Origin: Amoebophrya sp. A120
Taxonomy: Eukaryota > Protista > Dinoflagellata
Assembly: GCA_905178155.1 (NCBI GenBank)
Contig: CAJINV010000007.1
Span: forward strand, 2,213,151 to 2,277,150
DNA: 64,000 nt
Direction: 5' to 3'
The notes under the pieces are model-generated. The model did no database searches. It saw only the letters and a program-made list of their open reading frames with translations, and was not told where the DNA came from. This document shows, piece after piece, positions 8,601-56,561 of the stretch. Position 1 is the stretch's first letter. Every line of letters starts with the position of its first letter. Both the position numbers and the translations under genes were made by a program.

Positions 8601-10397
8601 CCGATACCCGGGGTCCAGAACTCGCGCCCAGGGCTGCGCCTCGAGAGCATCCACCTCGTGTTGCAATGGGGAGAGTGCTTTGACGCAAGTTGACGCGCAG
8701 AATTTCCGTAACCAGTGTGCGTTTGCGGTTTTCGAAAGCGAGGCCGCGTTCCAGGGAGCGAAGTTCAAAACCCCGAAAACTGGCCAGAAGCTCTCCATCA
8801 GAGACTGAATCAGCACAGTAATCTTGTTGGCTGCATCCATTGTGGGATGGCTCACTGCGCTTGCGGCTGGTCCCGGTGCAGCTGCTGGGGCGCCTCTACT
8901 ACTTGTTTCTTCTGTACTAGCGGTCTTGAAGTTGTGAAACACGCTTTCCAAAAACCTCTCCGCCCGCCGATCCATCTCGAGAAACATATCGTTCAGCCAG
9001 TCCGGCGGATTATTTTTCCAATTCTCTACCTCCTCCAACGAAAACCCCTTCGTCAAGCCTCGGCCGCTGTTCACTGCGAGAAAGTAGTAACTAAGGAGTT
9101 CCAGGGGAAAATTCGGTGTCTCCGGCACACTATTTTCCTTCCATTCTCGATGTCCATCCCCACCCGCGTCATTCCAAACGAAACTCGCGAGCAGCTCGAT
9201 CTTGTTCGCGGTGCTTGTTGTAGTGCTTGTTTCTTGCCCTGCGGTGCTCGCGGAGTCATTCGGACCTTTTTGTGCTTGGTCAATATCGTCGTGAAGCAAA
9301 TGCTGTACTTCGCGATCTGCTTCCTGACCAGCCTGTCTTTGTTGCACGACGAAGTCCACAGTAGGTAGATTTTTCTCCCGGTAGTCCGCATCTTCGTCGA
9401 ATCCCGGCGGCAGCTCGACGTTGTACCGGAACGCGATTTCGTGCTGCAGAACGCGGTCAAGTGTCCGGGTCACGAGGCCTGTTGATATTATATTTTTTTC
9501 CTTTGATTTTTCATCAATCTACGTGCGTCTAATCAGGCATGGAAAAGAATTCTTCTGTAGTTTGATTGTGAAAGAAAAAAAAACGTAAGTTACTTGCCTT
9601 CAGTTTCTGGCGGTCGACAAGATCTGGATGGTGCTCCCCAATCTTCTTCTTCGTTGCTGGTGTACTACTACACGACAACCCAGCAGGCTTTTTAGTTCTC
9701 TCCTCGCCAAAAAACCAGGCCGGTGAGACGGAAACCAGCAGTCCCATCAGGTTGTTGACCCACGCCGGAGCGTTATCCTGAGTAAAAACGTACCCACACC
9801 AGAGTTGTAATGCAGATTTGCAAAAACAGGAAGACTTGTAATGCGCATCCCCATGACAACCATTTCCAATCGTGTTTTGGAATTTGTGATGCTGTGAACA
9901 GGATGAGCAGATGAATCTGTGATGCGGCTGCACTTGCTAACCTGCACTACACTGCATAGTGCGACTTGTCATGCGTGACTCGCAAAACTCCTAGGTTTGT
10001 GTTGCAAAATCCCCATCCTGACTCTGGTGTGGGTACGTTTTTACTCAGGATAAGCGTCGTACTGGGTCCACCGCTTTTCCAGAGAGTTCGGCACCCCCGG
10101 TCGGAAGTGCAAGTGCGTCCACATGCGCAGCTTGAGTTGCCGGGTCGTGTACGAGTCCAGCGCGGTGGTCCACCCGGTGTCTTTGTCGTAGTGAGAGTTC
10201 AATAGGTTGGGAGGAACATCATCGTGGTGTCCTCCTCCAACGGAACACTTATGAGCATGTCGTCCTTCTGAATGCTGCTCCGCGTCGTGGGCCTGCGCGG
10301 CGGGGACAACCTCTCCTGCAGCAACGGGAAAGGCAATGCTAGAGAGGAATAAAAAGCCGCTGAAGGCTACGAGAGGAAGAGCGAGGAAGCGCAACAT
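5688..10397 (-). CDS. Large secreted or membrane-anchored FkbM-family SAM-dependent methyltransferase (~1436 aa, 3 exons)
   Basis: Signal peptide MLRFLALPLVAFSGFLFLSSIAFPVAA; FkbM motifs IIDVGANIG...HVIAVEP and LLKIDTEGHDTEVLEGA. Frame is joined by removing introner 9774-10052 plus one TSD (..QYDA|PAWVNN..) and GT-AG intron 9479-9593. Confidence 0.8.
9774..10052. mobile_element. Introner (TIR element acting as non-canonical intron), 279 bp
   Basis: Perfect 32-bp TIR TATCCTGAGTAAAAACGTACCCACACCAGAGT; TSD AGCGT at 9769-9773 and 10053-10057; removal restores the frame. Confidence 0.93.
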
Positions 10398-10822
10398 CTT
10401 CAGCGTTATCCTACTCAATTCGTGATCTCAACGCGGCTGAAAGAACATGTGAAATTGCAAGGGTTGATGGTGATAATTTTTTTTTTATTTAAACAGTGCT
10501 CGAACAATTTAATGTAGAAGATGGCCGTCCTCAGAACCTTGTTTTCTTCGTTTGTCTTTGTTTATTTTGGAACACTGCTAATCAAAGGGCAGAGGGAAAG
10601 CGAAAGGTCCCATGTCTGTAGGCATATGAATGCAACGCCTAACACACGTCGCCCGCAGCCCTATTCTTTTCTTGTCGCTTTTGGAAGATTCTTTCGTTTT
10701 TGTACACAGTAGTTTGCGTCATCTCGTCTAGGTAGAACTACAGCATCTCCTGCAAGTCTAGTTTTAAACCACGGCGGCAGGTGCAAAAAAATTATTTTTC
10801 CTCAATAATTCTGGTTCTGCTA

Positions 10823-15564: not shown

Positions 15565-15606
15565 ACAGAGGTATAAAAAGTTCGGAGGTAGTTCTCATCG
15601 AGGACA
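15565..15606. repeat. Host target duplication, copy 3
   Basis: 15565-15596 is identical to 18479-18510 (32 bp) and extends with mismatches to 15606. Confidence 0.9.
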
Positions 15607-19456: not shown

Positions 19457-22400
19457 CTACAACTGCGCATCCATGCCCCTCGGCAGGAACGCCACGTCAA
19501 AGACGTAGTGGCTCACCCGCGGCGCGTACGACTTCACTCGCTGAATATGCTCTACCTTCACCTCGAAGTCGCAGTAACTTTCGTCAGAACCATACTCGTT
19601 CTCGCGAGTTTCCTTCTGCAAGACCAAGAAGTCCTGGCAGATTTTCGAAGAATAAGCAGCAAAATCTGTGTCTTCCCGTAAGTTTTGGTGGATGTGCAGT
19701 TTCTTGACTCTGGTTTTCTCCTCCCAGTTCAAACACTCGGCCGCGGTTCGTCGAAACTTCTCCGTGTCGGGCAACAGACCGAGGATGACCCGGTCTGCGA
19801 CGGTTTTCGGCGCGACGACCGTGCAGTCGCCCTGGAGAATCGTTAGCCTCTGTTTAATATTCCTATTCGTCGAGGACGAGGAGCTGCTCTTCGCTTGTTC
19901 CGCCGGGAAATTCATCGCATACCCGCGTCTCAGCCCCTCCACTGATGCTGGGTTCCACTCGCAGGCGTAGACCTTCCCCTTCTCGCCTAACTCTTTCAGG
20001 ATCGGCAGGGTCCAGTACCCGATCCCAGCGAACAGGTCCACGACGGTCTCGTCTGGATGGATGCTGTACCCATGAGCATGTTGTTGATCTACTCCGTTCG
20101 AACAAGCAAAAATAACATTTTCATCCCTCGAAGATACGCTTCTTTGTTTGCTCCTAACTCGGATTTTCTCCGAGATATTTCCCTTGCAGAACATGGTCTT
20201 CAGCACATTCCAGGTGTAGTGGACGCCGTTTTCGCTGACTCTGTTCCAGACGTGCGGACGACAGAGTTCTGGTTTTCTTTCGGTTGATGATATCGCTGAT
20301 GATGTTGTACCACCTTTATTCTGTAGTAGAACTTTCCTGCCCGCCGGGTTGAAGCAGACTTCCAACGTGTTCAAGTTGTACCCTAGCCCGGCCCCACGAG
20401 GGTCGTGGTGAACTGTAGAACTCACGGCACAAAACAGCTGGATTCCCTTCGGGCTACGAAAATCGTCATCCGCCACTTCGCCCAGCACCCCGATCACCTC
20501 CACCTGTGGGTGTCTGCGCACCAGAAACGCATACCAAGTGAGCCAGAACGTCTTGCTGGGGGCGAGAACCCGCTGGAGCAGGTCCAGGGGAATGTTCTCG
20601 ATGAACGCAAATTTCCCCTGCACCTGGTAGGTTAACTGCGGTGGTGGAGTAGACCGCCGCGCAGTAGAGGTCGTCGTAATATGTTCATCTTCGTATGAAG
20701 ATGGCGGGGACAGCTCGGAGTACCAAGCAGGCAGTTCGGGCACGAAGACCGCAGGTGGGGACGTCGATGGTTGTAGTTCTTCTCGTCTGTCCCTGTCTTG
20801 ATGTAGTTCATCTGGGGATAATGAATAGAGTTTGGCTCTACTTACCCTTTGCTGTAAAACGCACCAGAGAAACTGGCAGATTGTCTGCGTAGCCGGCTGA
20901 AAGGTGATTCTCGCGGACAGCAGGTAGTCCAGAAATTCGACCGGGCAAAACTTGTCGCCGGAACTCTCGTATGGATTGCAAAAGTGTCTGGGTCTGGAAG
21001 ATTGCCAGATTTGTCATGCAGGTTTTCGATAACCAATGAGGTCTGGTATGTAGGACATAGCATGACAGATTCTGCGAAACCTTTCCAATGCCTATCCTGC
21101 ATAAGAAACTGCCTCGCGATTAGGTCAAAAGTGCACAAGAACTTTTGCCAATCATGCAATACAGTTTTTTGCCTGATTCAGATTTAGCATGACAAGTTGC
21201 ATTCTTCCAGACCCAGACATTTTTACATTTGATATCTCGCTGAGCTTCTCCCAACTTTCGTCCGTCCACTCGTACCGGTCGGGGGCGGCGCGTCGTGAAG
21301 AACTCGCCCGGCACCAGAGTTGCTGGTTACTGTCGTGCGTTACCGCGCTCTGTAAAGCGTCGACCTTCTGGGTGTGTGCAGGAGCTCCTTCGTCTTCAAC
21401 GACATCATTTACCGTCGTCGACCCCGCATTCTTACAGATGCTGGCAGTGGCACCACTAGTATGATTTCTTGCCTTTACTAACCCGCTGTCGACCTCCTTG
21501 ACCGCAGCTCGTAGTTCGGTCGCATCCATGACGTAGAAGTCGATTTCTTTCTCTGCTTCGTCGAAATAAACTAGAGCGTGATGTGCTTCGCCACCAACTC
21601 TGTGTGCTTCCGCAATCTCTGCTCTTCGACTACTTCGTGCCGCGCTAAGAAACTTCTTCATCTGCTCCACACCCTCCGGTGTGAGCCCCACGAGCATCTT
21701 GTTTTCGCCGGTTGTTGTATAATCTTGCAGATTTTGATGAACTACATCGAGCTCGACGCACTTGACACCGAATTTCTTGTCAAAAAGCCCTTTTTCCTGC
21801 ACGGTATCCTTCCAATATTTTGCGCGGGACTTTTCGCACACCAACGCACCCCCGGACCGGCTGATGAGGTCGAGGACTGCGGGTGGGAGTCTTGATGATG
21901 ATTTTGTGTTCAACGATTTTGCAGCGCCAGTTGTTGCCTTCACAGGAGCAGACGCAGGCGCCGCTGGAGCAGCTGCTCCAAATGAAGATGGGCTGCTTAG
22001 TCTTGTACTTGTTCCGTGCAGATCTTCTTCTGCGATTCGAGACGCTCTACAAGAAGTTTCCTGACCCTGATCGCGTTCAAACCCGGCGTGTTTTAGCATG
22101 TCAAAGAACTTTTCCGTTCGCGCTTTGTTCTTCGCGAAGCGCTCCATCGCGGAGGAGAGCCAGAAGGACATCAAGTCCTTCGCGTTTTCCTCCTCCTCCA
22201 TTTTCCCGCGCAGCACATTGTTGACGCGGCCGCCCGCCCAGCCGGCGGAAAACGCCAGATCCGACACGCGGCACGGGACCGTCATTCCGAACGCGTTTGT
22301 GCGGACCTGCACCATGCAGCGGCTCTTCCCCGAAACGCACATCCCGCTCTCCCGGTACCCGCACTGCAGCGCGAGGGTGAGGAATTTCTGCGCGGAGGCA

Positions 22401-33548: not shown

Positions 33549-36500
33549 TCAGTGCCAGCCGGTTCTATTTCGAAATTCCGCGATTTCGCTCTTTAGACTC
33601 TCGTCGATCTGTAGGGAGTCCGCCGTGAACGTCTCCCCTGTCACTGGGCAAACGTCCCCCTTAATGGCACTCCACTGCTGTAGGTTCAATAACTCGTAAT
33701 TCACAAAATAGCCTCCGCTGCACATAAACCGCACCGGAGTTTGCATCAACGTCCCGTCGATCCCACAGCGGTACTCCTCCGGTATCCTCGTCGGTTGCGG
33801 GATGCCGTTGATGAAGGTGATGCCATTGACGGACCCTTGATTATGTTGTCCCATAGGGTCCATCCCCCCAAACATGTCTATGCTCCGCGCCTTGTTCGGA
33901 TCGTTGATATTCTCCCCGCCCGAGAAGCTTCTCTCCTCGTCAAACCTCTCCCAGCGCGCGTCAGCGAGTTGCGATGGGGTCGGAGTCAAAGGCACGTCCG
34001 GCTCTATCTGTATTTCCTGCGGAAGTGGTGCTAGCGGGTCCTCATTGATCGTGTAAATTCGCGGCAAAGGGCCGTTCAGGAGCAGGCTCTGTTGGTCTTC
34101 TTGTTCGGCGGCGTTCCCCATTTGTAGTTCCTGGTCTTGTTTATAATTTGCAGCTGTCATTTCCTTCATTTTCATCTTCTCCCGCCTGTAGTAGCCTTCC
34201 TGAATCTCGGAGTAGTAAAACATCTGTTGCAGCAGCAGTATGCTACTTTTCTGGACAATCAGCCCACTGGAGCCTATTTCTATCGGGAAAAACTTCCCGA
34301 ACTCCGCATTCTCGTCTCGAAAGGCCTCGTTGCTCAGCCGCACGTCCTGCCAAAAGGGGTCGTGGACCGATTCTCCATCGCACCAAACGAAATACGTGCG
34401 AATCGCCCGCTATGGATGTGTCAGGATCGAAATCGACAAAATCGAAAAACTTGTAATGCATAAAATGTAGGCCAAGTAAGGCCTGTGTTGGGGAGCAGGC
34501 AAATGAGACCGATTGCAAGCCTGTTTAGGGGTATGCAATGTGCTGCCAGAGTAGCATGACAGGAGCAGTTTTCTTTGTCCAAACAGCATGACAGACTGGA
34601 TTTGGGTGCTCCCGAAATTTGTCATGTGCCACTTGGGAACTGAGGCTCCCAATGGTATCCTCGATTTCATGCATCACAAATTTTTCGACTTTGTCAATTT
34701 CGATTCTGACGCTTCCATACCCGCCAGAACCGCTGCAGGTGAAACGGCAATTCCTGCAAGTGCGCCTCCGAAAGTTCCTCGCGCGGCGCCTGCAGCTCTT
34801 GCGCGGCGAAAGTCGCCGCTTGTTCGAAGCAATTGCACCGGGTTGGCAGGTTGAAGTCCGGTTCGTCCGTATCGTAAGGAAAAATCCCCCCTCCCCATAT
34901 CAAAACGGGATTTCTTATGCTGGATTTGTGTACACCAATCAGCTTTGTATTGCAGAAAGGCACTGCGACCAGATCCGCAGACTGGGCAGGGGCGTATGGG
35001 TCTAGTTGCTCAGCATGGCAAACCGCTCCCCTTTAGGCCCAACAGCATGACAAATCGCTGCCATAATGGGGCGGAAGCTTCTGCCCTTGTCTTCCTGCAA
35101 GACAAATGCGATTTGTGACCTCAAATCAGCAACGCAAATTTTCGGAAACATACCTTTTCGATATGGGGAGGGGGGATTTTTCCTTTTGATAGTCCGGTAG
35201 ATTTACCAAAAACACCTTCGCGGCAACCGCACCGTACAACATGTAATCCCGCGGGACCGCCCAGGGCAGGTTCTCGTCGAAGGAGAACTGGGACAGGCAT
35301 TTCAGCTGCAACAGCATGTCCAACACCGCCTGGCAGAGCGAGGCCTGCAGCGTCCCCGCGGTGTCGCCAATCGCGGTCAAGTATTCCCGCCACTCCAGGC
35401 ACAGCGGCCTCGCGCGGCTGCTGTACAGCACGCCCCCGACGGCGACGGCCGCCTCGTCCACCATATCGGGCACCGGGTGGTTCTCGAAAAAGAGCAGTGC
35501 GTCGGTCGGGGGTAACACGCACTTCCGCACGAAGCGCTCGATTTCTTGCCGCCGCAGGGCCAAGTGGCGGACTAAGCGCATGACGACGTTCGCGACTTTC
35601 CTGGATATCAAATCGACGTCGTTGGAGCTGTAGTGTTTGTCGTCGAAGCACACTGTAGCCATCTCGGACACGATTCGGGTAAGGGCGATCACCAATAAAG
35701 TTGCGCGACTAGTCAGCTGCATCCTGCTTTTCGTGATTTGCTGCTGCGGGTCGAGCGGGTAGTTAGGATCGGTATAAGAATTGTAGTTTTGCATCGCCAC
35801 TACATCATCAGAATTGTTAAAATTCCCCGACAGCGTCCGCTCGCCGACATGGAGTTGCGAATCGGAAATACTCTGCTCGTTTAGCAGGGACTGCTCTATC
35901 ATGTTCCTTTTTCCACCGCTACTAGTTGTCCCTGATGAACCGCCGCCCGCGGTTGGGGAAATGGAGAGTTGGCTCACCATCTCCTCCAGTCGGGCCAGTT
36001 GCAGCTGTTCGTTGTGCCTCGCCTGATAGGGGTCGTGCGCGGACGCGGTGCCCGGGCTATTCGAGAGACCCAGCACCACCCGGGTCTGCCCCTCCTGGTC
36101 TAGCTGCTGCAGAAAGTTCGCATTCGCATCACCGGCACGAACAGTACTAGGGGATAGATTGTTCTCATTGGCGTTCATATAATTTCCACCGCCGTCAGCA
36201 GTTGGTGCAGCAGCGGTACTAGTAGCAGCTGTTGCTGCAGCACTACTACTGGCAGCTCCAATGACGACCGCCCCGTGGTTTTGCCCGCCCGATCCGCCGC
36301 CGAGCAGCAGCTTTTCGCAGCGCCGCAGCAACAGGGTGAGAACGTCATTGTCGATGAAGCAAAACGCGAGCCGTTTCCGGTACTCGAACACGTCCAACAC
36401 GGATAATTCTTGTGTTGCGGCATTGACGCCTCCAACGTCTAGTACTCCGTCTACGTGCGGTTGTTCCTGAAAAACCCCAGTTACCATTTCCTTCACCTGC

Positions 36501-43100: not shown

Positions 43101-46100
43101 ATCAGTAGCCAGAGATAGAGAAGAGGATGAAAAAGTTGTTGTTCTCGAGTTGCCGCAGCCGCCCCCCCGACCTGCCCCTCTGTGAAAAGCCGCTCCCCCT
43201 GCAGGTACAGCTTCTAGATGTCGCGGCTCACAACCTTCTTCATCCAGCTGTGGCGGCAGTAGAGGCGTTCCGAATGTCGGAGGGCTCAACTGGCGGCTCA
43301 GTCGGTGCCGAGGACGAGGACTCGTGAGCTGGTGGTCTTTTGTGATAGGTACGACTCTGGGACAATTGGAGGAGGAAGAAGACGCGGCCCCGAGGCTGGT
43401 GCGTGACCACTGCCGTGGTCCCAGTCTGCTCAGCGGCGTGTGCTCGCGACTGCTGGTCGTGTCCGCTGCACTGTCTAAGCGAAAAGATTGCAGCGACTGC
43501 ATGTCATCCCAGCTGATGCCGCCTTCGTCCCCCGCCAGCAAAGAGGGCGAAGTCTTCGGCATGGTGGAAGGCGTGCGAGTCAGCGGCGTAATAGGCGTTT
43601 GTATTAACAGCTCCTGACTCTGATGTCTGCGGTCGCAAACAACATTTTTCTTGTTGAACATAAGGGGCTCTCTTTTCTTCTTCAACATCGTCTTGTGCGC
43701 ATCGCAGGAAGGTCTACTTGTTCTTGCGCCAGTTGTTTCTCGTCCCGATGAGGCTGTAGTTGTATGCATTGCAAAAGTATCGTTCGCCTGGCGTCCTAAT
43801 TGCGGCGCTTCACTTTTTGCATGACCGAACAGAAGAGCTGCTTCTTCAGATATGCATGACAGATTTACTTTCTGTTCTAGTTCTTGAAGAAAAAAATTGG
43901 CATGCGAAATCCAGGAGTAGAAGAACGTCGATACTTTTTTGCTGCATACCCTGCTGCACAGTCAGCTTCTCCACCCCCGTCCGGAAACGACGGCACGATC
44001 ATTGCGTTCAGGATGGGTCTTGTGTCCAAGTCCGAATCGATTGTGGGAGTGATTTCTGAAGAACCGTCGAAGTGGTCCTCTTCCGACACGATCACTGGAG
44101 CAGGCGGTCCCGCACTCGGAGAGGCGGAGGTACTGCTACTGCTCACGTCACCGGTCGTGGGACTGTCTCTACTTTCCACCGCCGGCGAAAAGACTTCCTC
44201 GCCGCTCGTCGCGCTGGTTCCCCAAGACCGGCATTTCCGCTTCGCACTGGCGACCTTGCCGTAAATGTCTCCATTTATTTCCTGCTCGGGTTCGGGTTGG
44301 TGATGGACCTTGAACATGTTCTTCCCTCCAGGTAGATGAGCAACCGGCTGGTTGTGTGGGTGCTCGCTGTTCATGAAGACTTCTTCCTCGTATGCTCCTG
44401 CTGCTCCCGTCGTATAGAAGAACTGGCGTTCATCTAGATGAAGTGCGTCGTCTTTCTGACCAGAGGAGGCCCCGAAGCGAATCGATGCGTAGGCGCCCTG
44501 GAGAGGCATCGAGAGATGCTCCACGCCGAGCGAGCGAGGCACAGGAGGATGATGAACTACACCTCCTCCAGGGCGCTCTGTCTCGCGCCGTTGTTGTTCC
44601 CCATGATCCTTTTCAAATGCTTCCTGCTCAGAGGCGATGGAAGTGCTAGGAACCTGAGGTTTTACGAAGATTTTTTTTGTTCAACAAGTAGAGGTCTATG
44701 AGCGGTCATTTCCTTCTGCTGACAAGATTTTTTGCTCAGATGAAATAGCAAACAACAATTCATCATAGGCTGGTGAACCTCACCAAACAACAACTCATTC
44801 CTACGAACTTCTCACCAGGGGACTTTCCTGGTCGTCTTTTTGCCTCATCCCAACACGAAAGCCGCGCGGGGCGAACGAGGACACTCCGGCGGACGACGCT
44901 TCAACACCGCGGGAAGGGAAATCGTTGATCCAGCTGCTCTCTCTACCGCGAGAGAACGGCTGCCGGAGGCCCGGACTCGGCGTCCGGCTTCGAGCAGGGT
45001 CGTCAACAACGTGGGAGCGCGTCGCAGCATCAAGGTCAGTAGTAAAAGTTCTACTTTCGGGCGGTTCTACTGTGTTGAAGACTGGAACACCAACCTCTTC
45101 TGCCTCAACACCGCCTGCGCCAGAGCTTGTCCCTCCCCGTGGATGATGCTTTCCGAGACGATGGACCAGCACAGCGGCCGTGGGCGGAGACAGTCCGGGC
45201 ATTAGGTCCTCGTAATGGTCCTCGTTCCATGCAGCTCCGTCGTCGAACAGAGGAGAAGGAGATGGTATGAACACCTCTGCAGGATGATGGTACAGCAGAG
45301 GCGTCTGTTCGTAGTTGGTGATAGTACTAGTAGAAGGCCTCGTCGTGATATCCCCTGCTCGTCCTGTGGGGGACAAGGAGGACGAACGGCTAGCAGACAA
45401 CGAATTTCTCGGTAAAAAAGCTGGCGCAGCAAAATCATCTTGTTCATCGGAAGCTCGGGGCGATCGGTGTGTGGTAGTGGTTCTGGCTTCCAACATCGAA
45501 GTAGATAGGGGCGGCTCACGAGGAATTGTATGTGTATCTACTCGCACAGTAATATCACTTTTAAACCGTCTCCGCGTCGACGGCGAAGTCGTTGATGACG
45601 GCGTAGTTGTTGAAATAACAACGGCCACCGATGGACACGCATCGCTGGACGTGGCAGCCGGGTGTGATGAGGATGACGCAGACGCGCTGTTGCTGCTCTC
45701 AAAAATTTGCTGGGCTCTACTTGTTGCCGCTTGTAGCGGGCGGGTGATTCCACCGTGTCGAGCGGTTGCAGCAGCTGCCCAGGTGGAAGAAGTACTAGAC
45801 CGTTGATTGGAGATATCAAAATGCTGGTTGTCATCAACTACAACAGCAGGAGATGACGCGGCAACTGCCGCAGCTCCCCGGGGGCGCCCGCTTCTGCGAT
45901 CGGCGTTTCGCATCTCAAAACGTCGTCGAGTTGGTGCGCCGCCGGAGTAAGTCTCATAGCGTGCTGGACGTCCAACAAGCAGATCGTCGGTCTCACGAGG
46001 AGTGGGTCTAAGCTCCTGATGGTGGTCATCATGAAAACGCTCTTCGCTCGACGCGTTACTACGAAAATCAAAGCTGTTGTGCGTCGGCGTGGGTGGTGAC

Positions 46101-46732
46101 GGGGGAATTTCGCTGTACAGGTCGGCCAGCTGGTGCTGCGGTGCCTGGTGCTGATCCTGCTGTACTAATTGCCCTCCCACCCGAGGGGGCTGCGTAAGTA
46201 GCTGCATATGCGGGCCACGGATTGGCACGTGGTCTTCATCTTCGTCAAGATGAACTGAAGGCCCGCCGCCAGCACTGACTTTTGGCGTCGGGATATTGTT
46301 CTCGCTGTCCATAGCAGCTGCGTTCGCGTTGCTAGTACGGCCCATCAACATGCCGCGCCGGCCCATTCGAGTTCCGTCCGCGAAAGAGTAGCTCGAGAAC
46401 TCCGTTGGGAAAAGAAGAGAAAGGGTGGCCAAGTAGAACATGAGACGACCGGCCATGGTAAAAACGTGTGTTCTAGCGGCTGATGAAAAAATTCGGTTCA
46501 TCGCTACCATTGAGAAGTTGAATTTCTGTTTTGCTTTTTCAGTACCGGCGGAGGTTTTTTGGATCATGTTGTCGCCGTCAAATGTGGCGCGAATATCTCC
46601 GCACTTGCTGTTCTGATCTGGAATAATGTCGTGTCGAACTGCTCCAGGTGGCCCAATAAAATCTGCGTCTTCCCTGGAATGAAAATACGGACCACACAAC
46701 GATGTTGACACAGCGTTGTTCATTGATGCCAT
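40167..46732 (-). CDS. Very large S/T/P-rich hypothetical protein (~2070 aa, probably 3 exons) with an N-proximal hydrophobic segment
   Basis: Three ORFs join in frame through GT-AG intron 44654-44815 and decayed introner 43763-43948 (+5 nt). No recognisable domain. Confidence 0.6.
43763..43948. mobile_element. Decayed introner, 186 bp
   Basis: TIR 16/20 (TATGCATTGCAAAAGTATCG vs TATGCAGCAAAAAAGTATCG); two internal GCATGAC motifs; TSD only 2/5 (AGTTG/CCCTG); removing element plus 5 nt restores the frame. Confidence 0.65.
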
Positions 46733-49499
46733 CTTTGTCAAGTTGTCACGAAGAAGAAGATCACATTGGAAATTATACTGTCGCTTATTTAGTGCGCTTG
46801 GAGTATTTTCTTCAGTAAGTCTAGTGCTTTATTTGGAGGCTTTCTTATCAATCTTCTCTTTGCTAAAGTCGACGAAATGAAGTGTACGGAAAATTTTAAA
46901 ACTATTTTTTTTTTCTTCATATAGCTATACAAATCACAAAACTAAAACAGCGATAGAGTTCGGCAATGACATCAGATCGGAAATGGCGTTGATCCAGGTC
47001 GTTTGTCATCACAGATCGGTCGCGGTTCTTGCTTGCGGCTCATTTATTTATTTATCATAAATGAAGACTAACACGAAAAAAAATCAAAAAAATTATGAAA
47101 GGAAAAGGAATCTTTCCACTATGCTATCTAAATTCAATGTCCTCGCGATCTTTCAGTTGTGCGGCCAAATTAAGATGAAGAAAACTATTCAGACTAGCTC
47201 GCCCCCTAGTCCTACTAAGACGCAAAATGAAAGCACCACTACAACATCACTTAGTCACGTCAATGCAACCGTCGGAAAGCGTTGCACTGTTTGTAAGCTA
47301 AAAAATATCTTTCCAGAAGAGGAAAAAATGTGAAATTAAGAGCCACGTTGTATTTGAGTTTGCTCTTCAACTGAAGAGCGTCGTCGATGCCGGCAAAAGA
47401 TGGAAATGAAAAGCAATACACAAATAGCGTAACCGACACCAAATCCAAATCTAAGTCTATCCAAAAAAAAATCAAGTGAGCCAATATTCGATGCGTGTCG
47501 GCAAGTCGGAAGATTTCCGTCCAAAATATTGAAGTAAAAGCGTTTAGAAAAAAGTCTAGAAAAATAATTCTCACGCCAAGAAAATTTGATATGGCTGTCA
47601 AAACTTAAACCATCACGTACGAGCTGTTTCTACAAAATACAGTAAGGAGTCATGTGACCACAACTCGCCTCACTGCCGAACCACTCGAGTACTTCTATAA
47701 GGGTTTTCTGCTCTTCAGATGTATGATCATAGTAACTCTACTGTCACTGTCAGAGTCTCTTTCTTTTAGAATGCGGTATGTATTACTGCTTGTTGTGGTT
47801 TCCTGGTCGATCTGTGTGCTGTTCTTGATGGTACCATCAATGTAATGAATGCGGAACTCGACGACCACAGATAGACTGCTCCACTTCCAGCGAGGCTATC
47901 TATGCTTGTCGCGTCAGTTTGTCTGCCTTAAAGTCAGTGGTTACAATAATGTTGTGAAGCTCAGTACGAGTAGGCCCGTCCCTCCTGTCACGTAAAGGTG
48001 TTGGACAAGCTTCTCGTTCTACTACGAATCATGTCACAAGATCAAGACGCGGCTCCGACCGAAGGAAGACGGCCTTGGCCGGAGACACGATCCCGATAGT
48101 CTCCAGTTCTAACGCTCCTGCTGTGCCGGCCTTGGACCTGCGTTGCTTTGCCGTGCTACTTGCAGGAGTCTTTGCAAATATCAAAAATCAGAGATGGAGA
48201 TGAAAGTGAAAGCGAACTATTAAAAAAAAAATCAGTAGCAGCACAGGAGCCGTGCGAGGCAACAACACCAGGAAATAGGAGATCTCACGCGCACCTTGAT
48301 TGGAAGGCTAAAATGCGTCAGGTCTTTGTGAAGATATCAGGCGATATCGCATTGCAACTAACTAGGTGTTTATTGTTGTCTCTACAGCTAGCTTGTTCGA
48401 CAAAATAGTATAATGAACAATACCTACGCACCACTTCTAGTGTGAAACAACGTCTAGAAGTTGAAGCGACGTCAGTGCTTTATTTCTTTTGTGAATCTTC
48501 AACGTCTATAACTGGTGCCTCTTCAAATTTTATAGCTGTTCTAAAAAAAAAAATGTAAACAAATCTTCATCAAAATACTTTTCAACAAGCTTTTCCGAAG
48601 TCTTCTTTTTGTTGCAAACCAGTATCTTCATTCACCTTTTCATGTCTCTCCGCACTATTTCCTGCGAAACGGGAGCACAGAGAAACTACTTGCGAAGAAT
48701 ACCAAATTTGCACTGTGAGGATTGATATTTGGTTTGAATGCGGATTCAGAAGCGAGCGACGCACAACAAACTATAACTGCCACGAAAATTAGAAATTGAA
48801 ACTGCTCAAAAAAAAGGCCTTTGCTTCAACATCATTTTGACAAAAGCACCTGTCGCCGATGGTTACTTATCCTTAGCGTTACTCTTACAACTTCTACTTC
48901 TAATAGATGCTATAAAGTCGATTACCATCACCACAATGAACTCTTACTCTAGAAAAAGATCCACGTCGCCTGGCTACATTGGCGTCAAAATCCAGAGTAT
49001 AAGATCGAAGTCAAACGCTGCGAAAAGTGCGACTGTGAGTAGTGCCGCTTTGGGCAGAAGCAAGATCTTTTACTTCTTCCTGATAGCATGCGAGATCTTC
49101 AGTGTTAAGGCCAAAAAAAATCCCGTTCGTTCCTGCGAAACGCTAGATTTTCGGTATTACAACCCGTTCCTGCGCATGCGAAGCTTGTGCTATTTGATAG
49201 ATGTTGTTCGGAAATGTAAGCATTGTGTATTGATGACGAGTTTAGTGGCGGTCTATAGTCATAGATCTTTATCTCGTCACAAATGCATTCGACGTGCCAC
49301 CCACCTAGTACTTTCTGGAACACTATCAGACCCAGCATCATTATTTTGCGAAAACGACTGCTTTGCTTTCTAGTCCTGTTTTTATTGGCACAGTTAGTAA
49401 AAGTAAATTGTAATTCAGCCGCAACTGCATCAAAAAGTGTATCGCGATCAGAATGAAAAAAGTCCGCTGCACATCATCATGTTAATATGATTAATTGCG

Positions 49500-52400
49500 T
49501 CACTTCGCCTGAATGTTGTTCTTTTTCGGGCCCTTCAGTTTGGTATAGTACGTGGTCATGGCCCCGTTGCAGAAGGGGCGCACGAGCAGGTGCGGGTGCA
49601 ACTTCGGATCCACTTCGCCGCCCATCAAGTACGCCGGGTAGGGGCGCTTTTTGTACTTCTTCCGCCGCCGCTGGCGGTCCGTGTCCTCGACCACCTGATA
49701 GGTAAATTTCTGCTGCGCGAAATCCCACATTAGCGCGTCCTCGCTGGCGGTGTGGTCCTGGCCAGTCGCTCGGGTCAAGTAGTGCAGCGGGTTCCGCTCG
49801 TCTCGCCGCGGCTCCGGACCTATCCAAAGAAAAAAACCCATCTTTCCCCATCCATTTTTTACATGACAAACGCAGGACTTCAAGCATGTTTTGCGTGACA
49901 AATTGGATAGAGATGGGTTTTTTTCTGTGGATAGGACCGCGACGCAGAATATACTGGCCGCTCCGGTAGCGGATCGCGGGGTGACTGTCCGTCTTGCGAA
50001 TGTAGTCGAGCATTTGGGTGCTCAGATACGGGGTGCTCTCTATGGTAGGGAAAATCTGGTGCTGCACCAACTACATCGCCCTCAAAAAGGAAAAATGTAA
50101 GAACGTCTCGTGGAACAGGTAAAATAATGCTCAAGGTCAACAAACGCAAACTCTAACTCATGCAAAAAAGGCATGACAACTTGAGGTGGATGTTAAGTGA
50201 TGCTCTCTGTCATTTCGGATACGCTCGCGGACGGCAGAGGTGAGGCGAAAGGGTGTAGTGGTGCGCAATGATCGCGTTGAGCCATTCTCCCGAGAGAGAT
50301 CATGAACTCCGTCAGGGTCGTTGTTGAGAAAAGCGCTCAGTTGTGCGTCGAGGTCGTCGAAATAAGAAGTCTGCTGGTCTTGTTCATCTTGTTCATCAAC
50401 TACATCTCCCTTACTGTCATAATAATCACCGGTCCGCCGGTAGCGGTTCTCGCCTGTCGTATGCAGATGCGATTTTTTCTCCTGTCGCTCTACTGCAACA
50501 TCCAGGTCCCTTTCTCGTCCTGCAACTCGGTCGCGGGTCTCCTGGGAAGTAGATGAAGAGGCCAACAAATCATCCAGCCGAAGTTCTTGCCTGGTCGGAA
50601 TTTCGTTCTGGTTCTTATGAGCAGCAGCGGGCGACGAGCCTGTGGCGGTTGTGGTTCTTGTGAGCGGAGTTACGACAGTGGCCGCTGCGCTATTCGACGC
50701 GGTCGATGCTGCTACACGGTCCAATAACTGCTCGAGGCTCTCGCTCTGGCTCATCCCTTGGTGAAGCAATGATCCGCCAGAAGATGGTGGGAACGTAGTA
50801 GAAGACTTCTTGTTCTCATCGCGATTTCCTTGCACAGCTGCCGCGTGTTGTTCCTCGTTAAGATCCCCATCTCTTGACAGTACTGGAATGGGATTCCCGT
50901 CATCGAATGACATATTACGAGAATTATCCCTGTTGGTTATCTTCATCTCGCAGGCATTCGTATTCTTTCCTGCAGCAACACTCGATAAAAGTTTCCTACT
51001 CGTGGACCACCTCTCCTGACGAAGATGGCGACGCCCGCACCCGGTCGTGTAGTTCTTTGAGTACTTCTCCTGATCGTTGCGCGCCAAGTGGTTCCAGTCA
51101 GAAGAGGCCACGAAGTGACTTAATTCAGGCCGACTCTGCCCATTGCGGTCAATGCTGCGGACGGATGAAGCTGCGAGGGTTTGTTCTGGCGAAGGAACTC
51201 GCGGCCCCCGTACTACTTCTACACCAGGATAAAGAGCGCCGCCAGCAGGATCTAGTTGTACTTTGGCAGGAGCTGCTTCTACTAGTTTTTTCAATTTCTT
51301 CACCCTCTCACCCGTCGCCGAATCCACCAGCGGGTCGTCCTGTTTCCAGTAGTTCCGCCCCTTTCTGTAGTCAATAGGCCGCTTCTTCAGGTGCGTCTGC
51401 TGTCTGCCGCCCTTGCTCGCCAAAAAGTTTCGGATCGCCAGCGCGCACAGCTGGGTGGCGGAACGAGTACTGTGGTTGCTGGTGGTCCTAATAGTACTAG
51501 CAGGAGTTGGTGTATTCCTTGTCAAACCTCCACCAGCAAGACCGAGATTGGCCGCGGCAGAAGAAAACGAAGCACGGATGGTGTCTGTTAACCTTTCGCC
51601 AACATCATTTGACACTTGCTGTGGGTCATCAGGTTCTTGTGCAACAACTGTTGAACAATTGTGCCAAACAAAACTTTTACACTTGTTCACGAATTTCTTT
51701 GCGGGGTTCGGGGTTCTGCCCATGGTCTGCATTGGTTTCGCCGTCAGCGGGTCCGGTGTGGACTGCTGTGTTGAATTTATTTTCATTTGCTCCGCAGCCT
51801 GAGGTGTACGTGTAGGTGTACCCACTTGATGCCGCGCCTGCTGATGATCATGATCTTCTTCAGCATGAAGATGCAGAGACACACATGTCGTTCGCGCCGT
51901 CACGACAAGCTGTGCCTCGGCTTCCTGCGCGATCCTTTGCAAAAAAATAAGATCCCGACTGGTTGGTCGTCTGTTTTTGTTTGACAAGGTGTCCTATCAA
52001 ATGTAAAAATGTCTGGGTCTGGAAGAGTCATGCTGTTTCTGCATGACACAGAAGGTCTTGCATGGAAGCTCTAGCATCACAGGTTTCGAGAAGCTTTCGA
52101 AATACCGAATCCGCATGACAAGTCCCCCATTTTGGGGACAGAAAGCGAGCAGCTTTTGCTGCCTATGCATCAGAGATTTTTGTGTGTTCTGAAATGCGCA
52201 TCACAAGTTACATCCTTCCAGACCCAGACATTTTTGCACTTGATATGTCCGGCCGGTACGAGGCGTCGTGTGCCCACTGGCTGAATATCCCACAGAAAAA
52301 AGCTGGCAGGGCATGTTTGTAATGCAGAAATAAATAGACAATAGACACCCAAAATAGCTCGTAGAACCCTGTCAACTTCCACCAAGTGAAACATCACTGG

Positions 52401-54463
52401 TGAGGTGAGCCCAGGGCCCCTGGAGGTGAGAAACGAGGGTGGCACCTATAGTCGACCATACCAACTGGTCAACCAGGAAATGAGGAAGTGGGTAAGGAGC
52501 ACAAATGTCCCGGGATAACAAAAACTGAATATCCCGCACAACCTCTGCCAACCACTGCCCTCGAATTCACAAATGAAAAGGCAATGAGCCAATTCAACTC
52601 CGGCTACTCATCCCGAAGCAAGCTCAACCACCTCCCACCAAGAGCGAGCAACGGGGCAAATACACAGAGCAACGGGGCAATGCAGAAATAAATACACAGA
52701 AAAATCTGTCACGGGCGGCCTCATAGCATGCTGTTTAGGATACGCAATGCAGATTTTGATTTTTTTGTGTATTTATTTTTGCATTACAAATGTGATCTGC
52801 CAGCTTTTTTCTGTGGGATACTGAAGGCTCTGAGAACGTGACTACAGGTCGTGGTTTTCTCATCGTTTTTGTCGTTTGGGTTCATCGTGTAAGAACTCGT
52901 CCTGTCAGCTGCCGTATAAAGTAGCCCTCCTCTGCCTTGTGCATACAACATACGCAGCACCGCCATGGGGTGGGCGAAACAGTCCACGTCCTCCGTATCG
53001 CGGACTTCGGTGCCTAAACGGGCTTCGAATTCCGTCCAGAGTAACTCTTCAAACTTCTTCGAGCTGAACGCCATCTCCGGAAACTTACAGAGACACTCGT
53101 AGATCTCTTCCAAAGTGAGACAGGAAGCCTCGTAGAGAGCCCGTTTTTCCAAAATTTCCGGAACTTTGGAAGATTGTAGGAACATCTTTTCGGCTCCTGC
53201 TCTAGAACTCGAAGTACCACTTCTGGCCGGCTGTGCTGAACGGTCGTCTTCCGATTGTTGCGTCGACGCCGGAGGTGTGGAAGTTCTTGCAACGTTTTGT
53301 CCCCAACTCATCCGCGACGCACTGGTGGTAGTTGTGCGATTCAAAATCGTCAAGCAGCATTGCAAACTGCAGAGGTGCAAAAACCGAAACTCCCGCTCGT
53401 GGTGAAGTACGTACGTCATGATTTCCGACTGGAGCTGATCGTTCTGGAGATTCAGCCTCGCCAACACCTGCACCGCTTGCACCAGCTCCTCCGCATACAT
53501 GGCCGGCATCAGGCGAATCAAGTGGTGAAACAGTTCCACGTACAAAACCCGCGGCCGCAGCTCGAGCCGCTCGCAGACTTCCAACGTCTGCAAGATGTGC
53601 GGGACGGCCAACCGGCTCGCTTGGGAGCAAATGTCGTCGAAAAGCTTCTGAAACAGATCGTGCTCCGCTGGTTGGATTTTTGGAAGACACTGAAGATCTT
53701 GTTGGTGATCATCTGCTGCTGTATCAAGAAAATCTCGTCCCGAAGTTGTTGTTGACGATGATGCTCCTACTGCTCCTGCTGCTGAGGTGCAGCTCCTCGT
53801 CGTTGACGACACAGCGCCAGAACTACCCTCCCGCGCTTGATCATGCTCCTGCAGCAGCTGCAAGAAAACCGTGTAGGCCTTGAGAATTCCGATTGCGTCA
53901 AAGTACAAAATGTTATCCATGGAGGAGAGCCTGCTCAGAGCGGCATTCCACAGTCGGGCGTCCACACATTCGTTCGACGCGGCAGCCAGTAACACATTCC
54001 TCACCTGGGTCGGCGACATGCGGGAAACTTCCCGGATCTGAGCGTTTGAGGCCGCGGAGGTGGGAGGTCGTTTTGCTGTAGGTTTGATTATTTTCATCAT
54101 TCCAGGAGCCGCCTCTGTGATAGTGATGTCCCCAGTCCTAGCACCGATTTTACAACTTGCCCTGCGCCCATCCTGCTGCGTCGGCGCCAGGCTGGTCGCG
54201 TCTTCATCTCCAGTTGCAGTTGTGCTCGGGAGAGCCACATCGTGTGCCGTACCTTCTACAAGCTTTTTTGTATCTTTGCTAGTGCCCGACCTTTTACCAG
54301 TGGACGTCGACGGGGCGATTGCGAAGGGCGCAACTCCACCTTCTGCATGGGGTATCGGATGATCCGAGGTAGAGGCCTTGAAAATGCGCACGCCTTTGGT
54401 TTTAACTTTCCGACCCCAGGAGAATGGCCGCTGGGCAAGACGGACGGAAAGCAATTGCCGCAT
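49500..54463 (-). CDS. Helical-repeat (HPR/OPR/FASTK-like) putative organellar RNA-binding protein (~1287 aa, 5 exons)
   Basis: Basic N-terminus MRQLLSVRLAQRPFSWGRK, resembling a mitochondrial presequence; Leu-rich ~37-aa helical repeats (LAVPHILQTLEVCERLELRPRVLYVELF..MYAEELVQAVQVLARLNLQNDQL). Four introner removals give a continuous frame. Family assignment is by eye. Confidence 0.65.
49821..49933. mobile_element. Minimal introner, 113 bp
   Basis: TIR 22/23 (TATCCAAAGAAAAAAACCCATCT); TSD GGACC at 49816-49820 and 49934-49938; joins ..LRRGP|EPRRDE.. Confidence 0.92.
50041..50221. mobile_element. Decayed introner, 181 bp
   Basis: TAT-N7-AAAA left end, ATA right end, TSD 4/5 (CTCTC/CGCTC), GCATGACAA ~40-50 nt from the right end; TIR pairing lost; removal joins ..SAVRER|TPYLSTQM.. 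Confidence 0.6.
51995..52245. mobile_element. Introner, family A, 251 bp
   Basis: TIR 29/31; TSD TGTCC at 51990-51994 and 52246-52250; joins ..YRPD|TLSNKNRR.. Confidence 0.93.
52286..52820. mobile_element. Introner, 535 bp, with internal cargo
   Basis: 24-bp perfect TIR TATCCCACAGAAAAAAGCTGGCAG, extending imperfectly to ~55 bp; TSD CTGAA at 52281-52285 and 52821-52825; joins ..LRAFS|QWAHDA.. Confidence 0.93.
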
Positions 54464-55575
54464 CTTGGACTCCTGGTGAGAACGACCTTGTGGGCAGAAA
54501 TGCTGTAACAAACAACTTTGGGAAGATGAGTTTTCTCTTTGTACAAGGAATCCGTATAAACTTTGTTCCAAGGGTGTTTCTTTTGGTTCACCCTAAAATA
54601 AAACATCACGACCGCGAATCAAAAAAGCCATGGGAACAAAGATGTTTGAGTTTATAATTGCATGCACAGACACTACAAAAGTACAACCGAACAAGTAGAG
54701 GGGCAACACAGACAGACAAGCACAATTCGTCTTTTTTCCTCCGACTTCCTAAGCGGGCTATTACAACCGAAATTCGCATTCCTTTTCCTTTCTGCAAAGA
54801 AATGCACTTGCAAGCAACATCAGGCATCAAGCGGAAGAGGTGAAACCTGAATGCCTGGCCACGACGAGAACAAAGATTCCTCTCCAAGCGCAACATGAGT
54901 GCGATCTGCAGGAGGCGCTGGCTCCTCGCCGCTAAGCAGCAGCCGGCTGTCAAAGTGGTCTATCTAAACAACTGATCACTCACAACATGTGCTTAGATGT
55001 ACCGTCCAAGAGTTGTTAATCATGACTCTTCAAACTAGGATACACTTGTTTCGGGAATACTTTCGTGCCTGTCTCCATGATTCAAGTTCAACATTGTACA
55101 AGGGGCTATTAAAGAACTTCTACAACCGATCATATCGATTACAACACCCACAGCGGAAGCTGAATTTTTCCAAAATTTTTTGCACTTTGCTTTTGCATTT
55201 GCGCTCAGCTCTGGTAAGTGCGTTAATCATGCTTTTGCAGCGAAGAAGGCTCGCTTCATACTAGATGAAAGTGGCCGTATGTATACAAGTTCTTTTTCCA
55301 TATGATTTTTCTACCATCATGAAGGTAGTACTTACAACTACTTACTCCGAATCCGATCCGAAACCCGAGGACTCCTTTTCCGTCGTTTCCAATCCATACT
55401 TGAGCCAGGCTGGCACTTCTAGCCCCGGGTTCTGCGAGTTCCACTCATCCGACAGTTTGCAACTGGCTGCAATGTTCACTGCAGGAAAGTTTTCAAAAAG
55501 AGCAATGAAATTTGTAGTGCTGCTGACGCAAGAAGTTTGAGTAAAAGTAATGGCATTGGTGTCATGCACATGTTG

Positions 55576-56561
55576 CTATAAATATTCAACCAATTCATTA
55601 ATACGAGAATCTATGTATACTTCTGGATTGCATATTAAAGCACTAGTACCAGACGCGGTGACCACGACCTCGTCTTCGCTGAAAGACACTTGCTTCTGCG
55701 TGTTTTTTATCAAATGCTAAAATGTCTGGGTCTGGAAGAATGAATGTTTGTCATGCTTGTCTGGCATGACCCTTAATTTTGTCATGCACGTCACCCAAGA
55801 GCCCCATTTTTCTGTCATGCAGAAAAGCAGTTTGTCACGCAGAATAGGCAACACCTAGAAGCTCAGAAACTTGTCATGCTGATCCAGCACTTGTGGCCTC
55901 CTCACGATACGCCACCAAGCATCACAAGTTTCCAGACCCAGACATATTTGCATTTGATATTTTTCTTCTTCTCCGAGGCCTTCTCGCTCGTTGTCACCTC
56001 GTCGGCTTGTTGTTCTCTTGCTGAAGTGCCCTCGGTTTTATTTTTCGTGGCATCTTCTATTTCTGTTGATGCTCCACCATCACCGGCTAGAAGTGCGGTT
56101 GGCAGCTCCTCGTCTCTATCTGGTTGCCCGCTAGTTTTCTGCTGGTTATTTCTTCTCGACGTTGTCTGCGCTCCGGAGTTCTTGCAGCCTGGATTATTTA
56201 TACATGAAGATGTGATTTCGATTTTTTTCATTCGATTCTCCTTTCAGGTGCCGATAGCAGCGCTATGCTCCTGCTTCGTATAAATATAGAATCTCACCAC
56301 GTCGTGGAAGAAAACAAGAATAGTACGCGCGGCGCGGCACCCAAGTTGTGCAAGAAATGAAAACTAGACATAACTACCTTCTTTTGCTGACGTAGCAGCT
56401 CCGGCCTTGTTCAGTGCCACCGGGGTGACCACGTTCTGGGTCACAGAGGGACGGCAACAACGAAACATTTTGTAGGCTCTGAGGAGATTGGTGCGGCGCG
56501 GTTCTGTATACGCAGTGGAGAAATAATCGTGAAACGGGTTTGTTAATCGAGCTAAGTACAC
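55576..56561 (-). CDS. Fragmentary multi-exon hypothetical gene (ends uncertain)
   Basis: Exon 55960-~56250 continues across the introner as ..EKKK|NTQKQVSFSEDEVVV..; an upstream exon candidate lies at 56380-56560. It may belong to a larger neighbouring gene. Confidence 0.35.
55708..55959. mobile_element. Introner, family A, 252 bp
   Basis: TIR 28/30; TSD TTTTT at 55703-55707 and 55960-55964; about seven internal TGTCA(T/C)GC-type motifs. Confidence 0.9.

Follow-up and report, generated by a model that had tools for sequence, protein, structure and literature searches.

A repeated short motif shared by introner families of Amoebophrya A120 and its probable role as a site on double-stranded DNA

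Introners of Amoebophrya A120 have been described as introns of about 250 nt that lie in co-oriented genes and use non-canonical splice sites, with inverted repeats that start with TAT, seven variable bases and at least three A, and with direct repeats of 3-5 nt (Farhat et al. 2021, PMC7789003). That paper counts about 29,850 introns derived from introners, which fall into 1,954 families; in the parts of that paper drawn on here, no clear splice signature is reported for A120 introns, U1 snRNA is undetected in A25 and A120, no transposase was found in A120, and the movement and splicing of the introners are left open (PMC7789003). The 'Ginger'-like family 38 of A120 is a TIR introner of about 810 bp with a 5-bp TSD, TA/TA termini, coding remnants and integrase-like homology (Gozashti et al. 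2025, PMC12130899; 40 of its 58 A120 rows). Beyond the TIR, elements of the hAT group (Hermes, Ac, Tol2) carry many short sites that lie in either orientation and are arranged asymmetrically between the two ends, and these subterminal repeats are bound by a multimeric transposase; the Hermes sites are 4-mers (AAGT), for which the sections of the article used here report no 31-33 bp period (Lannes et al. 2023, PMC10368747). IS3EU and GingerRoot elements have TA..TA termini (TAYGG..CCRTA), an integrase-type DDE enzyme and a TSD that is usually 6 bp (PMC10045372, PMC12730594). The Stowaway MITE Ost35 is an orphan that is cross-mobilised by the distantly related Osmar14, and its internal sequence enhances transposition (PMC3660474).

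The window analysed here, a stretch of 64,000 nucleotides of A120 DNA (contig CAJINV010000007.1), contains ten TAT..ATA elements in which a nine-base motif recurs. The elements, with two example copies of the motif, are as follows.

9774..10052, introner of the 280-bp family F4, TSD AGCGT; exact motif at 9805, 9836, 9884, 9917 and 9966, all on the plus strand and antisense to the transcript, with a degenerate copy at 9997 and no reverse copy
9805..9813, plus strand, motif copy TTGTAATGC, 31 nt from the element end and first of a pair 31 bp apart
20970..21234, introner of the 250-270-bp family F1, TSD TCTCG; motif at 21011 (plus), 21060 (minus), 21187 (minus)
34411..34719, introner of family F10, related to F3, TSD CCCGC; motif at 34451 (plus), 34554, 34586, 34671 (minus)
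34870..35191, introner of the 320-bp family F3, TSD GTCCG; exact motif at 35045 (minus) beside five degenerate copies, three pairs 32-33 bp apart, no exact subterminal copy
43763..43948, decayed introner that matches the 150-bp family F2 weakly; motif at 43854-43862 (minus), central
49821..49933, 113-bp introner with F8-like ends, TSD GGACC; one-mismatch copies at 49861, 49893 (minus), 32 bp apart
50041..50221, decayed introner with an eroded TIR; motif at 50171-50179 (minus), 42 nt from the right end
51995..52245, introner of family F1, TSD TGTCC; motif at 52074, 52113, 52198 (minus), degenerate copy at 52167, and on the antisense side no copy that reaches a matrix score of 8
52286..52820, 535-bp introner of family F8, TSD CTGAA, with a 56-nt imperfect TIR; motif at 52317 (plus) and 52781 (minus), each 31 nt from an end
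55708..55959, introner of family F1, TSD TTTTT, outside the long minus-strand ORFs; motif at 55748, 55779, 55812, 55871 (plus), 55919 (minus)
55919..55927, minus strand, motif copy TTGTGATGC in reverse form, 32 nt away from the right end

With the A120 introners as published, these elements have in common the TAT, seven variable nucleotides and A run, the direct repeats and the non-canonical RNA ends, and by such sequence features they match them. The available text of the published description gives terminal inverted and direct repeats only, with no internal common motif (PMC7789003); the internal motif array, a TSD of 5 bp throughout and an N|TAT register that is likely fixed go beyond it. 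Family 38 and the present elements, compared by description only, both have a 5-bp TSD, TA/TA termini and TIRs. The window elements are repeated in many copies and contain no transposase, the longest frame within the 535-bp element being 91 codons; summed DNA contig depth, a rough measure, was 882,122 at 52210 compared to about 45 in the flanks. Removing 9774..10052 together with 5 nt restores a 204-codon minus-strand ORF (9532-10427), removing 20970..21234 yields a 1106-codon ORF whose two parts bear TYW3 and TRM5/TYW2 domains, and joint removal of 34411..34719 and 34870..35191 yields a 1134-codon ORF with a U-box.

In contig sets from one sample that are presumed to be RNA, five of the seven elements between 33100 and 52950 were skipped as the element plus 5 nt, and the five RNA-supported elements were cut to the base. 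This length was skipped in all four sets for 49821..49933, 51995..52245 and 52286..52820, and 186 nt were skipped in all four for 50041..50221 (register 0+5 or 1+4). The decayed introner 43763..43948 was excised as 43759-43949 in two of the four sets, with a joint free of ambiguity, so that the excised GT..AC transcript segment equals 1 nt, the element and 4 nt. No joint for 34411 or 34870 was among the joints listed, where flank cover was almost nil, and the raw-read RNA runs X9 and X10 cover just 2 of 30 bins, a TIR only. Splicing of 55708..55959 was not seen in a joint table that repeat joints of the DNA run had filled. The cut sites appear to be fixed by the element ends, which likely set the splice register N|TAT...ATA+4. 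If so, a simple rule would replace 'no clear splice signature' and gene models would improve.

The original prediction gave the motif as TTGT[CAG]ATGC, which occurs 20 times in the window; YTGTVATGC is a better form, with 28 copies compared to a shuffle mean of 3.19 (28 reached in 0 of 100 shuffles). Twenty-five of the 28 fall inside the ten elements (2,693 bp; 9.3/kb), one lies in the 45,534 bp of long minus-strand ORFs (0.02/kb), and two lie in the remaining 15,773 bp (0.13/kb), in which canonical introns are pooled rather than individually annotated; the rarity noted earlier for the GT-AG introns was borne out to this extent. All 11 copies cited earlier are present, the plus-strand ones exactly placed and the reverse ones (21187, 34671, 52198, 52781, 55919 and 50171) within 1-3 bases. 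The count of about seven in 55708-55959 was too high (five exact, six by weight matrix), and the persistence of the motif noted earlier was seen as one exact copy in each decayed element but only as two one-mismatch copies in the 113-bp element. Similar enrichment was found in six metagenome-collection loci outside the set that defined the motif, and loci L001-L005 hold 197 motifs in 19,116 bp of elements compared to 6 in 38,579 bp outside. Element calling made no use of the motif and gave no false calls in 378,824 shuffled bases; 71 of the 76 elements contain an exact copy and five do not, giving 201 exact copies in total and a matrix-site density of about 18 per kb. The motif is real. It was not reported in the text of the open-access literature and supplements searched, and Rfam gave no matches in 126,295 bases. 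Neither the F1 TIR pattern nor a generic tip-plus-two-motifs pattern found a locus in viral contigs. The sole generic-pattern locus in prokaryote genomes, L007, was rejected as a short tandem repeat that has inverted arms of its own, at about the chance expectation. A possible resemblance of the motif to Sox-Oct composite sites and the apicomplexan TGCATGCA box was set aside.

The TIRs of the window elements had been called unrelated, which does not hold as stated: 20970, 51995 and 55708 belong to one family with an identical TIR, and all families have a TAT-S-N6-AAA tip in common. Between families, end identity is 0.88 at nt 1-4 and 0.60 at nt 11-15, compared to 0.31 at nt 5-10 and 16-30, and on each side 67-73 of 76 ends have A at positions 11-13. 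The TAT was required by the element caller, and 12 copies found by HMM mostly keep it. The 5-nt direct repeat is perfect in 61 of the 76 elements, has one mismatch in 14 and three mismatches in one, the caller having demanded a match of at least 4 of 5. The TA..TA termini, some of which read TATGG, resemble those of IS3EU/GingerRoot; unlike those elements, the window elements and loci have a 5-bp TSD, the RNA skip is the element plus 5 nt, and no transposase is seen here.

Within families, the seven fixed bases of the motif have a pairwise identity of 0.88-0.97 compared to 0.55-0.73 for other interior bases (seven of seven aligned families). Base 5 has an identity of only 0.22-0.75, yet it is A, C or G in 0.97-1.00 and T in just 4 of 205. 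Avoidance of T as a guard against a cryptic TATG end was rejected, since the depletion of TATG in interiors is mild (0.80) and insufficient to explain it. DNA contigs on two F1 copies list 24 variable positions, of which none breaks a fixed base (P about 0.01), two fall at base 5, one falls at base 1 and one restores the motif. When the motif is masked, nearly all between-family similarity is lost, with z>3 retained by only 2 of 45 family pairs; masking strips up to 47% of a consensus, and shared ancestry may therefore be hidden. The noted conservation of the motif while TIR interiors and bodies diverge was thus upheld, and since the families have no other detectable similarity, a sequence-specific reader is likely. 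The array could instead be a functionless, neutral relic of one ancestral element, as might be suggested by the common tip consensus and TSD length, the common layouts of F3/F10 and of F6/F9, and the weak cross-matches of family models. However, descent alone does not hold seven bases at 88-97% beside neighbours at 55-73% with a three-lettered base 5; the relic reading is largely refuted by this within-family constraint, and we regard it as the least credible of those considered.

An inward-facing, subterminal placement had been proposed, and this is true of part of the copies: 127 of 201 point inward but 74 outward, and an inward copy at 28-50 nt is found in 71 of 152 ends but at both ends in only 21 of 76 elements. 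In the 150-bp family F2 the copies nearest the ends point outward. Each element end has a motif-free zone of 30 bp, and sites are phased to the ends at 31-32 nt in F1, F4, F5 and F8. Twelve same-strand pairs 31-33 bp apart occur in six of seven families compared to 1.5 expected, which 0 of 20,000 shuffles match even when the best window is taken. Spacers of these pairs have an identity of 0.27 compared to 0.25, which argues that they are not recent tandem copies, and tandem duplication as the origin of the 31-bp period is unsupported. Opposite-strand copies recur 15-17 bp apart. With regard to the transcript, for which the host strand was assigned per locus through restored ORFs (weakly for 20 of the 76 elements), 110 copies are sense and 91 antisense (p=0.20), and the check for transcript-strand bias proposed earlier therefore found no significant bias. 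The majority is sense in 33 elements, antisense in 22 and tied in 21; F5 is inserted in the sense-rich direction in 8 of 9. A sense site is absent in 5 of 76 elements and an antisense site in 7, so that 12 have matrix sites on a single strand.

These results bear on whether the motif is read as DNA or as RNA. The suggested resemblance to an RBFOX (U)GCAUG element was rejected, with GCAUG in the transcript in only 32 of 201 copies (UGCAUG in 12), base 5 free among A, C and G, and no strand bias. More generally, a protein or small RNA could bind UUGUVAUGC or its complement and recruit the spliceosome in place of the reportedly missing U1, with both-strand copies allowing splicing in either orientation. 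All five RNA-verified introns contain a sense copy and four contain sense copies only, including the two decayed elements and the 113-bp element, where only sense copies remain; there is also the mild, non-significant sense excess, and U1 is undetected in A25 and A120 in the text available (PMC7789003). Such a signal is nevertheless hard to reconcile with four F4 copies whose six (or four) sites are all antisense, three of these F4 copies lying in ORFs restored by excision. Sense and antisense sites decay alike (mismatch difference -0.065, null sd 0.086, p=0.47, 324 site copies), in a test of limited power that detects only post-insertion decay. No fixed distance from motif to either splice site was found in the elements, the motif is near background outside them, and a spacing held at 31-33 bp across spacers of unrelated sequence would be difficult to account for on single-stranded RNA. 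We consider an RNA splicing signal unlikely.

A further RNA reading has opposite-strand copies pairing, folding the intron and bringing its ends together. Copies 15-17 nt apart would form a 9-bp stem with a 7-nt loop, and in predicted folds motif bases are paired at 0.77 compared to 0.59, with 64 of 199 sites pairing with another exact site. Pairing needs complementarity only, however, and would not call for the same sequence in every family; at base 5, end partners are complementary at the chance level (7 of 21 compared to 7.1 expected, no covariation), and in 12 of the 76 elements all matrix sites lie on a single strand. Hairpins are therefore very improbable as the explanation.

The reading we prefer, at a probability of roughly 0.6, is that the mobilising protein of the TAT..ATA introners, a transposase or its partner, reads the motif on double-stranded DNA as a conserved and repeated site, one that many families with no other alignable sequence have in common. 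DNA is preferred because there is no significant strand bias, the 31-33 bp spacing is kept over unrelated spacers and some elements have their sites on a single strand; for the same reasons a DNA-binding site is the better fit of the two options originally offered, and a signal for an excision factor is less well supported since the cut sites are apparently set by the element ends. By analogy, we infer that the array resembles hAT subterminal repeats as DNA sites for a shared transposition protein, in that multiple short repeats of either orientation lie inside the TIR. The hAT TSD is typically 8 bp. Here the TSD is 5 bp, and unlike in Hermes the site spans 9-13 bp, is common to families with unrelated TIR interiors, and lies in elements that are also introns. 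A multimeric protein would bind several sites on the same helix face (31.5 bp being three turns), while its catalytic part would recognise the common TAT-N7-AAA tip and cut with a 5-bp stagger. TIR positions 5-10 and 16-30 and the interiors would be free to change, whereas the array would have to stay for copying, so that a single enzyme could amplify many families. Splicing would depend mainly on the ends, with one cut 1 nt upstream of TAT and the other 4 nt downstream of ATA, which would remove the element plus 5 nt and restore the target. The enzyme is most likely integrase-type (Ginger or IS3EU-like), an assignment drawn from termini and TSD only, and family 38, with its integrase-like homology, would be the best lead to it. 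Against this reading, the analysis turned up neither a binding protein nor an autonomous element, and the paper supplements searched contained no cognate integrase-type DDE transposase with these ends.

A host chromatin or transcription factor could also bind the array on DNA while the transposase reads the tips only, the elements exploiting this binding through DNA bending, silencing avoidance or intron marking during transcription. The DNA-level data would be identical, a transposase is unreported in A120 in the text consulted (PMC7789003), and internal MITE sequence can boost transposition apart from terminal binding (PMC3660474). Yet the motif is nearly absent in host non-coding DNA (the 2 copies in 15,773 bp and 6 in 38,579 bp given above), which is not what one would expect of a general host factor, and the sites are phased to the element ends; this makes a host factor distinctly improbable. 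Ost35 differs from the present elements in its TA target, mariner enzyme and non-intron nature, and the parts of its report seen here describe no cross-family repeated motif (PMC3660474). Unlikely as well is a dual use of the array, in which one element-derived protein copies hundreds of unrelated introner families and also marks the copies for a U1-less spliceosome, on DNA during transcription or on RNA, with the cut at the tip-set register N|TAT ... ATA+4. If true, a transposition factor would have taken over the definition of most introns in a eukaryote.

That a single conserved, phased site is common across families suggests one factor serving most of these. The array could be used as bait for pull-downs and as a filter in searches for the autonomous element, and mutating the motif would separate mobility from splicing. 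Some observations run against the preferred reading: sense copies are slightly ahead and occur in each of the five RNA-verified introns, F4 has a weak sense site that is conserved, pairing in predicted RNA folds is more frequent for motif bases, and a 385-bp family with ends like the others has just one degenerate motif copy. Asymmetry between 5' and 3' ends in transcript orientation was nominal at position 4 only (p=0.03 among 13 tests), and motif-site density had no significant relation to age proxies. In the F1 element at 55708..55959, the motif copy at 55832 carries C at 55838 as a private variant, where other family copies have T (depth 320,286 of 320,375).

The nine-base motif YTGTVATGC occurs 28 times in the window against 3.19 expected. 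Introner elements (transposon-like introns with TAT..ATA ends) make up 2,693 bp and contain 25 of these copies; the long ORFs (45,534 bp) have one and the other 15,773 bp have two. The copies cited in the original prediction are present in the window sequence; three of the elements it had credited with unrelated terminal inverted repeats (TIRs) belong to one family, so the window alone offers few independent cases. A metagenome collection was scanned with the family TIR, without using the motif, which yielded six loci totalling 62 kb (contigs JACKZZ01) that share only element copies with the window (81-96%) and no unique sequence. A motif-blind caller returned 78 elements (8 in the window and 70 in the loci), and made no false call on 378,824 bases of shuffled sequence. 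To these were added two decayed elements of the window, delimited from RNA, and three duplicates, arising from a 1,384-bp overlap between L002 and L006, and one 818-nt composite were removed; an exact motif copy is found in 71 of the resulting 76 elements. Across loci L001-L005, elements (including degenerate ones found by HMM) span 19,116 bp and contain 197 copies, versus 6 in the 38,579 bp outside them. Weight-matrix sites reach a density of 18.5 per kb within elements, compared with 0.33 after shuffling and 0.49 elsewhere in the window. The extended consensus is approximately AAAY-YTGTVATGC-W, with variants including TTCTCATGC and TTGTCTTGC. Loose ends in a raw-read RNA run with the same species label show the family TIR and then the motif at 39-41 nt, as do those in contigs of runs X1 and X3. 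An exception to the array rule is a 385-bp family (L002 4592-4976), which has the usual tips and target-site duplication (TSD) and a single degenerate motif copy. A repeat in a prokaryotic MAG (L007 3001-3134) was judged unrelated; it consists of three tandem units with CTGTCATGC lying inside 23-nt inverted arms.

Ten inserts in the window have TIRs starting with TAT and are flanked, unless decayed, by a 5-nt duplication; every long ORF is on the minus strand. Insert ends in the window and loci conform to TAT-S-N6-AAA, which is the published A120 introner signature (PMC7789003); from these features the source organism is probably an A120-type Amoebophrya. Deleting the element plus 5 nt reopens ORFs of 204, 1106, 1134, 1440 and 1330 codons, two of which carry TYW3/TRM5 and U-box domains, and contigs from four runs of one sample, guessed to be RNA, skip exactly the element plus 5 nt at 5/7 elements within 33100-52950. 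The window inserts are therefore real introns with the anatomy of non-autonomous DNA transposons. At 19460-23047, a single ORF unites TYW3 and TRM5/TYW2 methyltransferase domains across an introner. One gene stretch (L005 4461-12623) holds 14 introners and has 1161 open codons once they are removed; within this restored ORF lies an F4 (280-bp family) element with a nested insert of ~870 bp (L005 7265-8412). An F2 (150-bp family) element has a nested insert of ~670 bp (L004 11360-12177), and neither insert contains a long frame. Summed DNA contig depth over the F1 (250-270 bp family) TIR is ~20,000 times that of the flanks (51995-52245 and 55708-55959), a rough measure which suggests a copy number in the order of ten thousand. 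The 535-bp element has an internal copy, CTGAATATCCC (52524-52534), of its left junction (TSD and first six TIR bases), which may be chance. The 3' end of one transcribed region has an AT-rich segment (38719-38966) that contains an imperfect inverted repeat of 16 nt and has neither TAT ends nor the motif.

Alignments of seven families show the fixed motif bases (seven per site) to be 0.88-0.97 identical between members, compared to 0.55-0.73 for other interior bases. Identity at base 5 is only 0.22-0.75, yet A, C or G occupies it in 0.97-1.00; the base there is T 4 times versus 53, 84 and 64 times for the other three bases. When a DNA run was aligned to the two F1 copies (90% likeness required; 40 of 52 table rows listed), none of the 24 listed variable positions broke a fixed base; two fell at base 5, one at base 1, and one restored the motif at a change private to the window copy. 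Identity between families is no higher than chance at TIR positions 5-10 and 16-30 (0.31), and with the sites masked only 2/45 family pairs (F3-F10 and F9-F10) kept z>3. Old common ancestry would be compatible with this comparison, since masking costs power, but descent alone does not produce the motif column pattern.

The terminal 30 nt of the elements are free of copies at both ends. The first site falls at 30-35 nt in F4, F5, F8 and one end of F1, and at 38-45 nt in F1, F3, F9 and F10, while in short elements copies are distributed over the entire length. The predicted inward orientation holds for 127 copies; 74 face outward, and the subterminal pair as described is found in only 21/76 elements. 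Spacing was measured on consensus maps for seven families, with F6, F10 and F7 omitted as related to others or motif-poor; same-strand pairs 31-33 bp apart number 12 versus 1.5 expected and occur in 6/7 families, a count matched by 0/20,000 random maps in any 3-nt window. Opposite-strand pairs at 15-17 bp number 8 versus 1.9 expected (best-window P=0.01), and the spacers are mutually unrelated (0.27 vs 0.25). Three turns of B-DNA span 31.5 bp, and thus same-strand sites would share one helix face.

In favour of a role at the RNA level, with the host strand of each element assigned from restored ORFs, sense-majority elements outnumber antisense-majority ones (33 vs 22), 8/9 F5 elements are inserted in the sense-rich direction, all five RNA-verified introns have a sense site (four have sense sites only), and motif bases are more often paired in predicted folds (0.77 vs 0.59). 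However, sense copies (UUGUVAUGC in the transcript) number 110 and antisense ones (its complement) 91, p=0.20; the 56 elements with the best support give 82:64. Decay of conserved sites is similar in the two orientations (a difference of -0.065 mismatches against a null sd of 0.086, p=0.47), five elements lack a sense site and seven an antisense site, and end-partner sites do not covary (7/21 vs 7.1). The suggested RBFOX resemblance is limited to 32/201 copies with the GCAUG-type word. On balance, an RNA role is less likely than DNA binding.

For the observed array, constraint, spacing, 5-bp TSD and exact excision, we propose that a multimeric transposition protein would bind the array on DNA and bring the common TAT-N7-AAA tips to a catalytic centre that inserts with a 5-bp stagger; the need to be copied would select for retention of the sites while the remaining sequence drifts. 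No mobilising enzyme was found in the window and loci. The arrays parallel the subterminal repeats in hAT transposons, to which the Hermes octamer binds (PMC10368747), although these introners are not hATs. The TA..TA termini resemble those of IS3EU/GingerRoot elements, which usually make 6-bp TSDs, whereas A120 family 38 (PMC12130899) is listed with a matching 5-bp TSD and TA/TA termini and with integrase-like homology. Introners themselves are already known; no report of the motif common to their interiors, or of its spacing, was found in the open-access text and supplements searched. The array would belong with the internal binding repeats already known from transposons, and it renders open questions of introner mobility and splicing testable.

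At 43759-43949, where the duplication has decayed, only one joint is possible: in the transcript the intron comprises the element with 1 nt before it and 4 nt after it, and its ends are GT..AC. Two registers, 0+5 and 1+4, are compatible with 50036-50222, and every register fits the remaining three RNA-skipped elements; both decayed introns have G at +1. The TSD base at the cut position is G in 23/76 elements, with no strong G requirement, and T is the second base in all nine of the non-canonical pairs most frequent in A120 (GT, CT, AT, TT; Table S4, PMC7789003), in agreement with the N|TAT prediction. From the single unambiguous joint and the published table, the T and A of the TIR likely act as intron +2 and +3. 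Since 50041-50221 is exactly excised despite barely complementary ends, splicing appears not to need a long terminal hairpin. Among four HMM-found degenerate copies (L004 13321-13608, L004 13670-13939, L005 9618-9938 and L001 3135-3385), the transcript 3' ATA has become ATG in three and the 5' TAT has become TAG in one; all four retain the 5' TA and an A located 7 nt upstream of the predicted 3' cut, which in these four cases would fit a branch A at -7.
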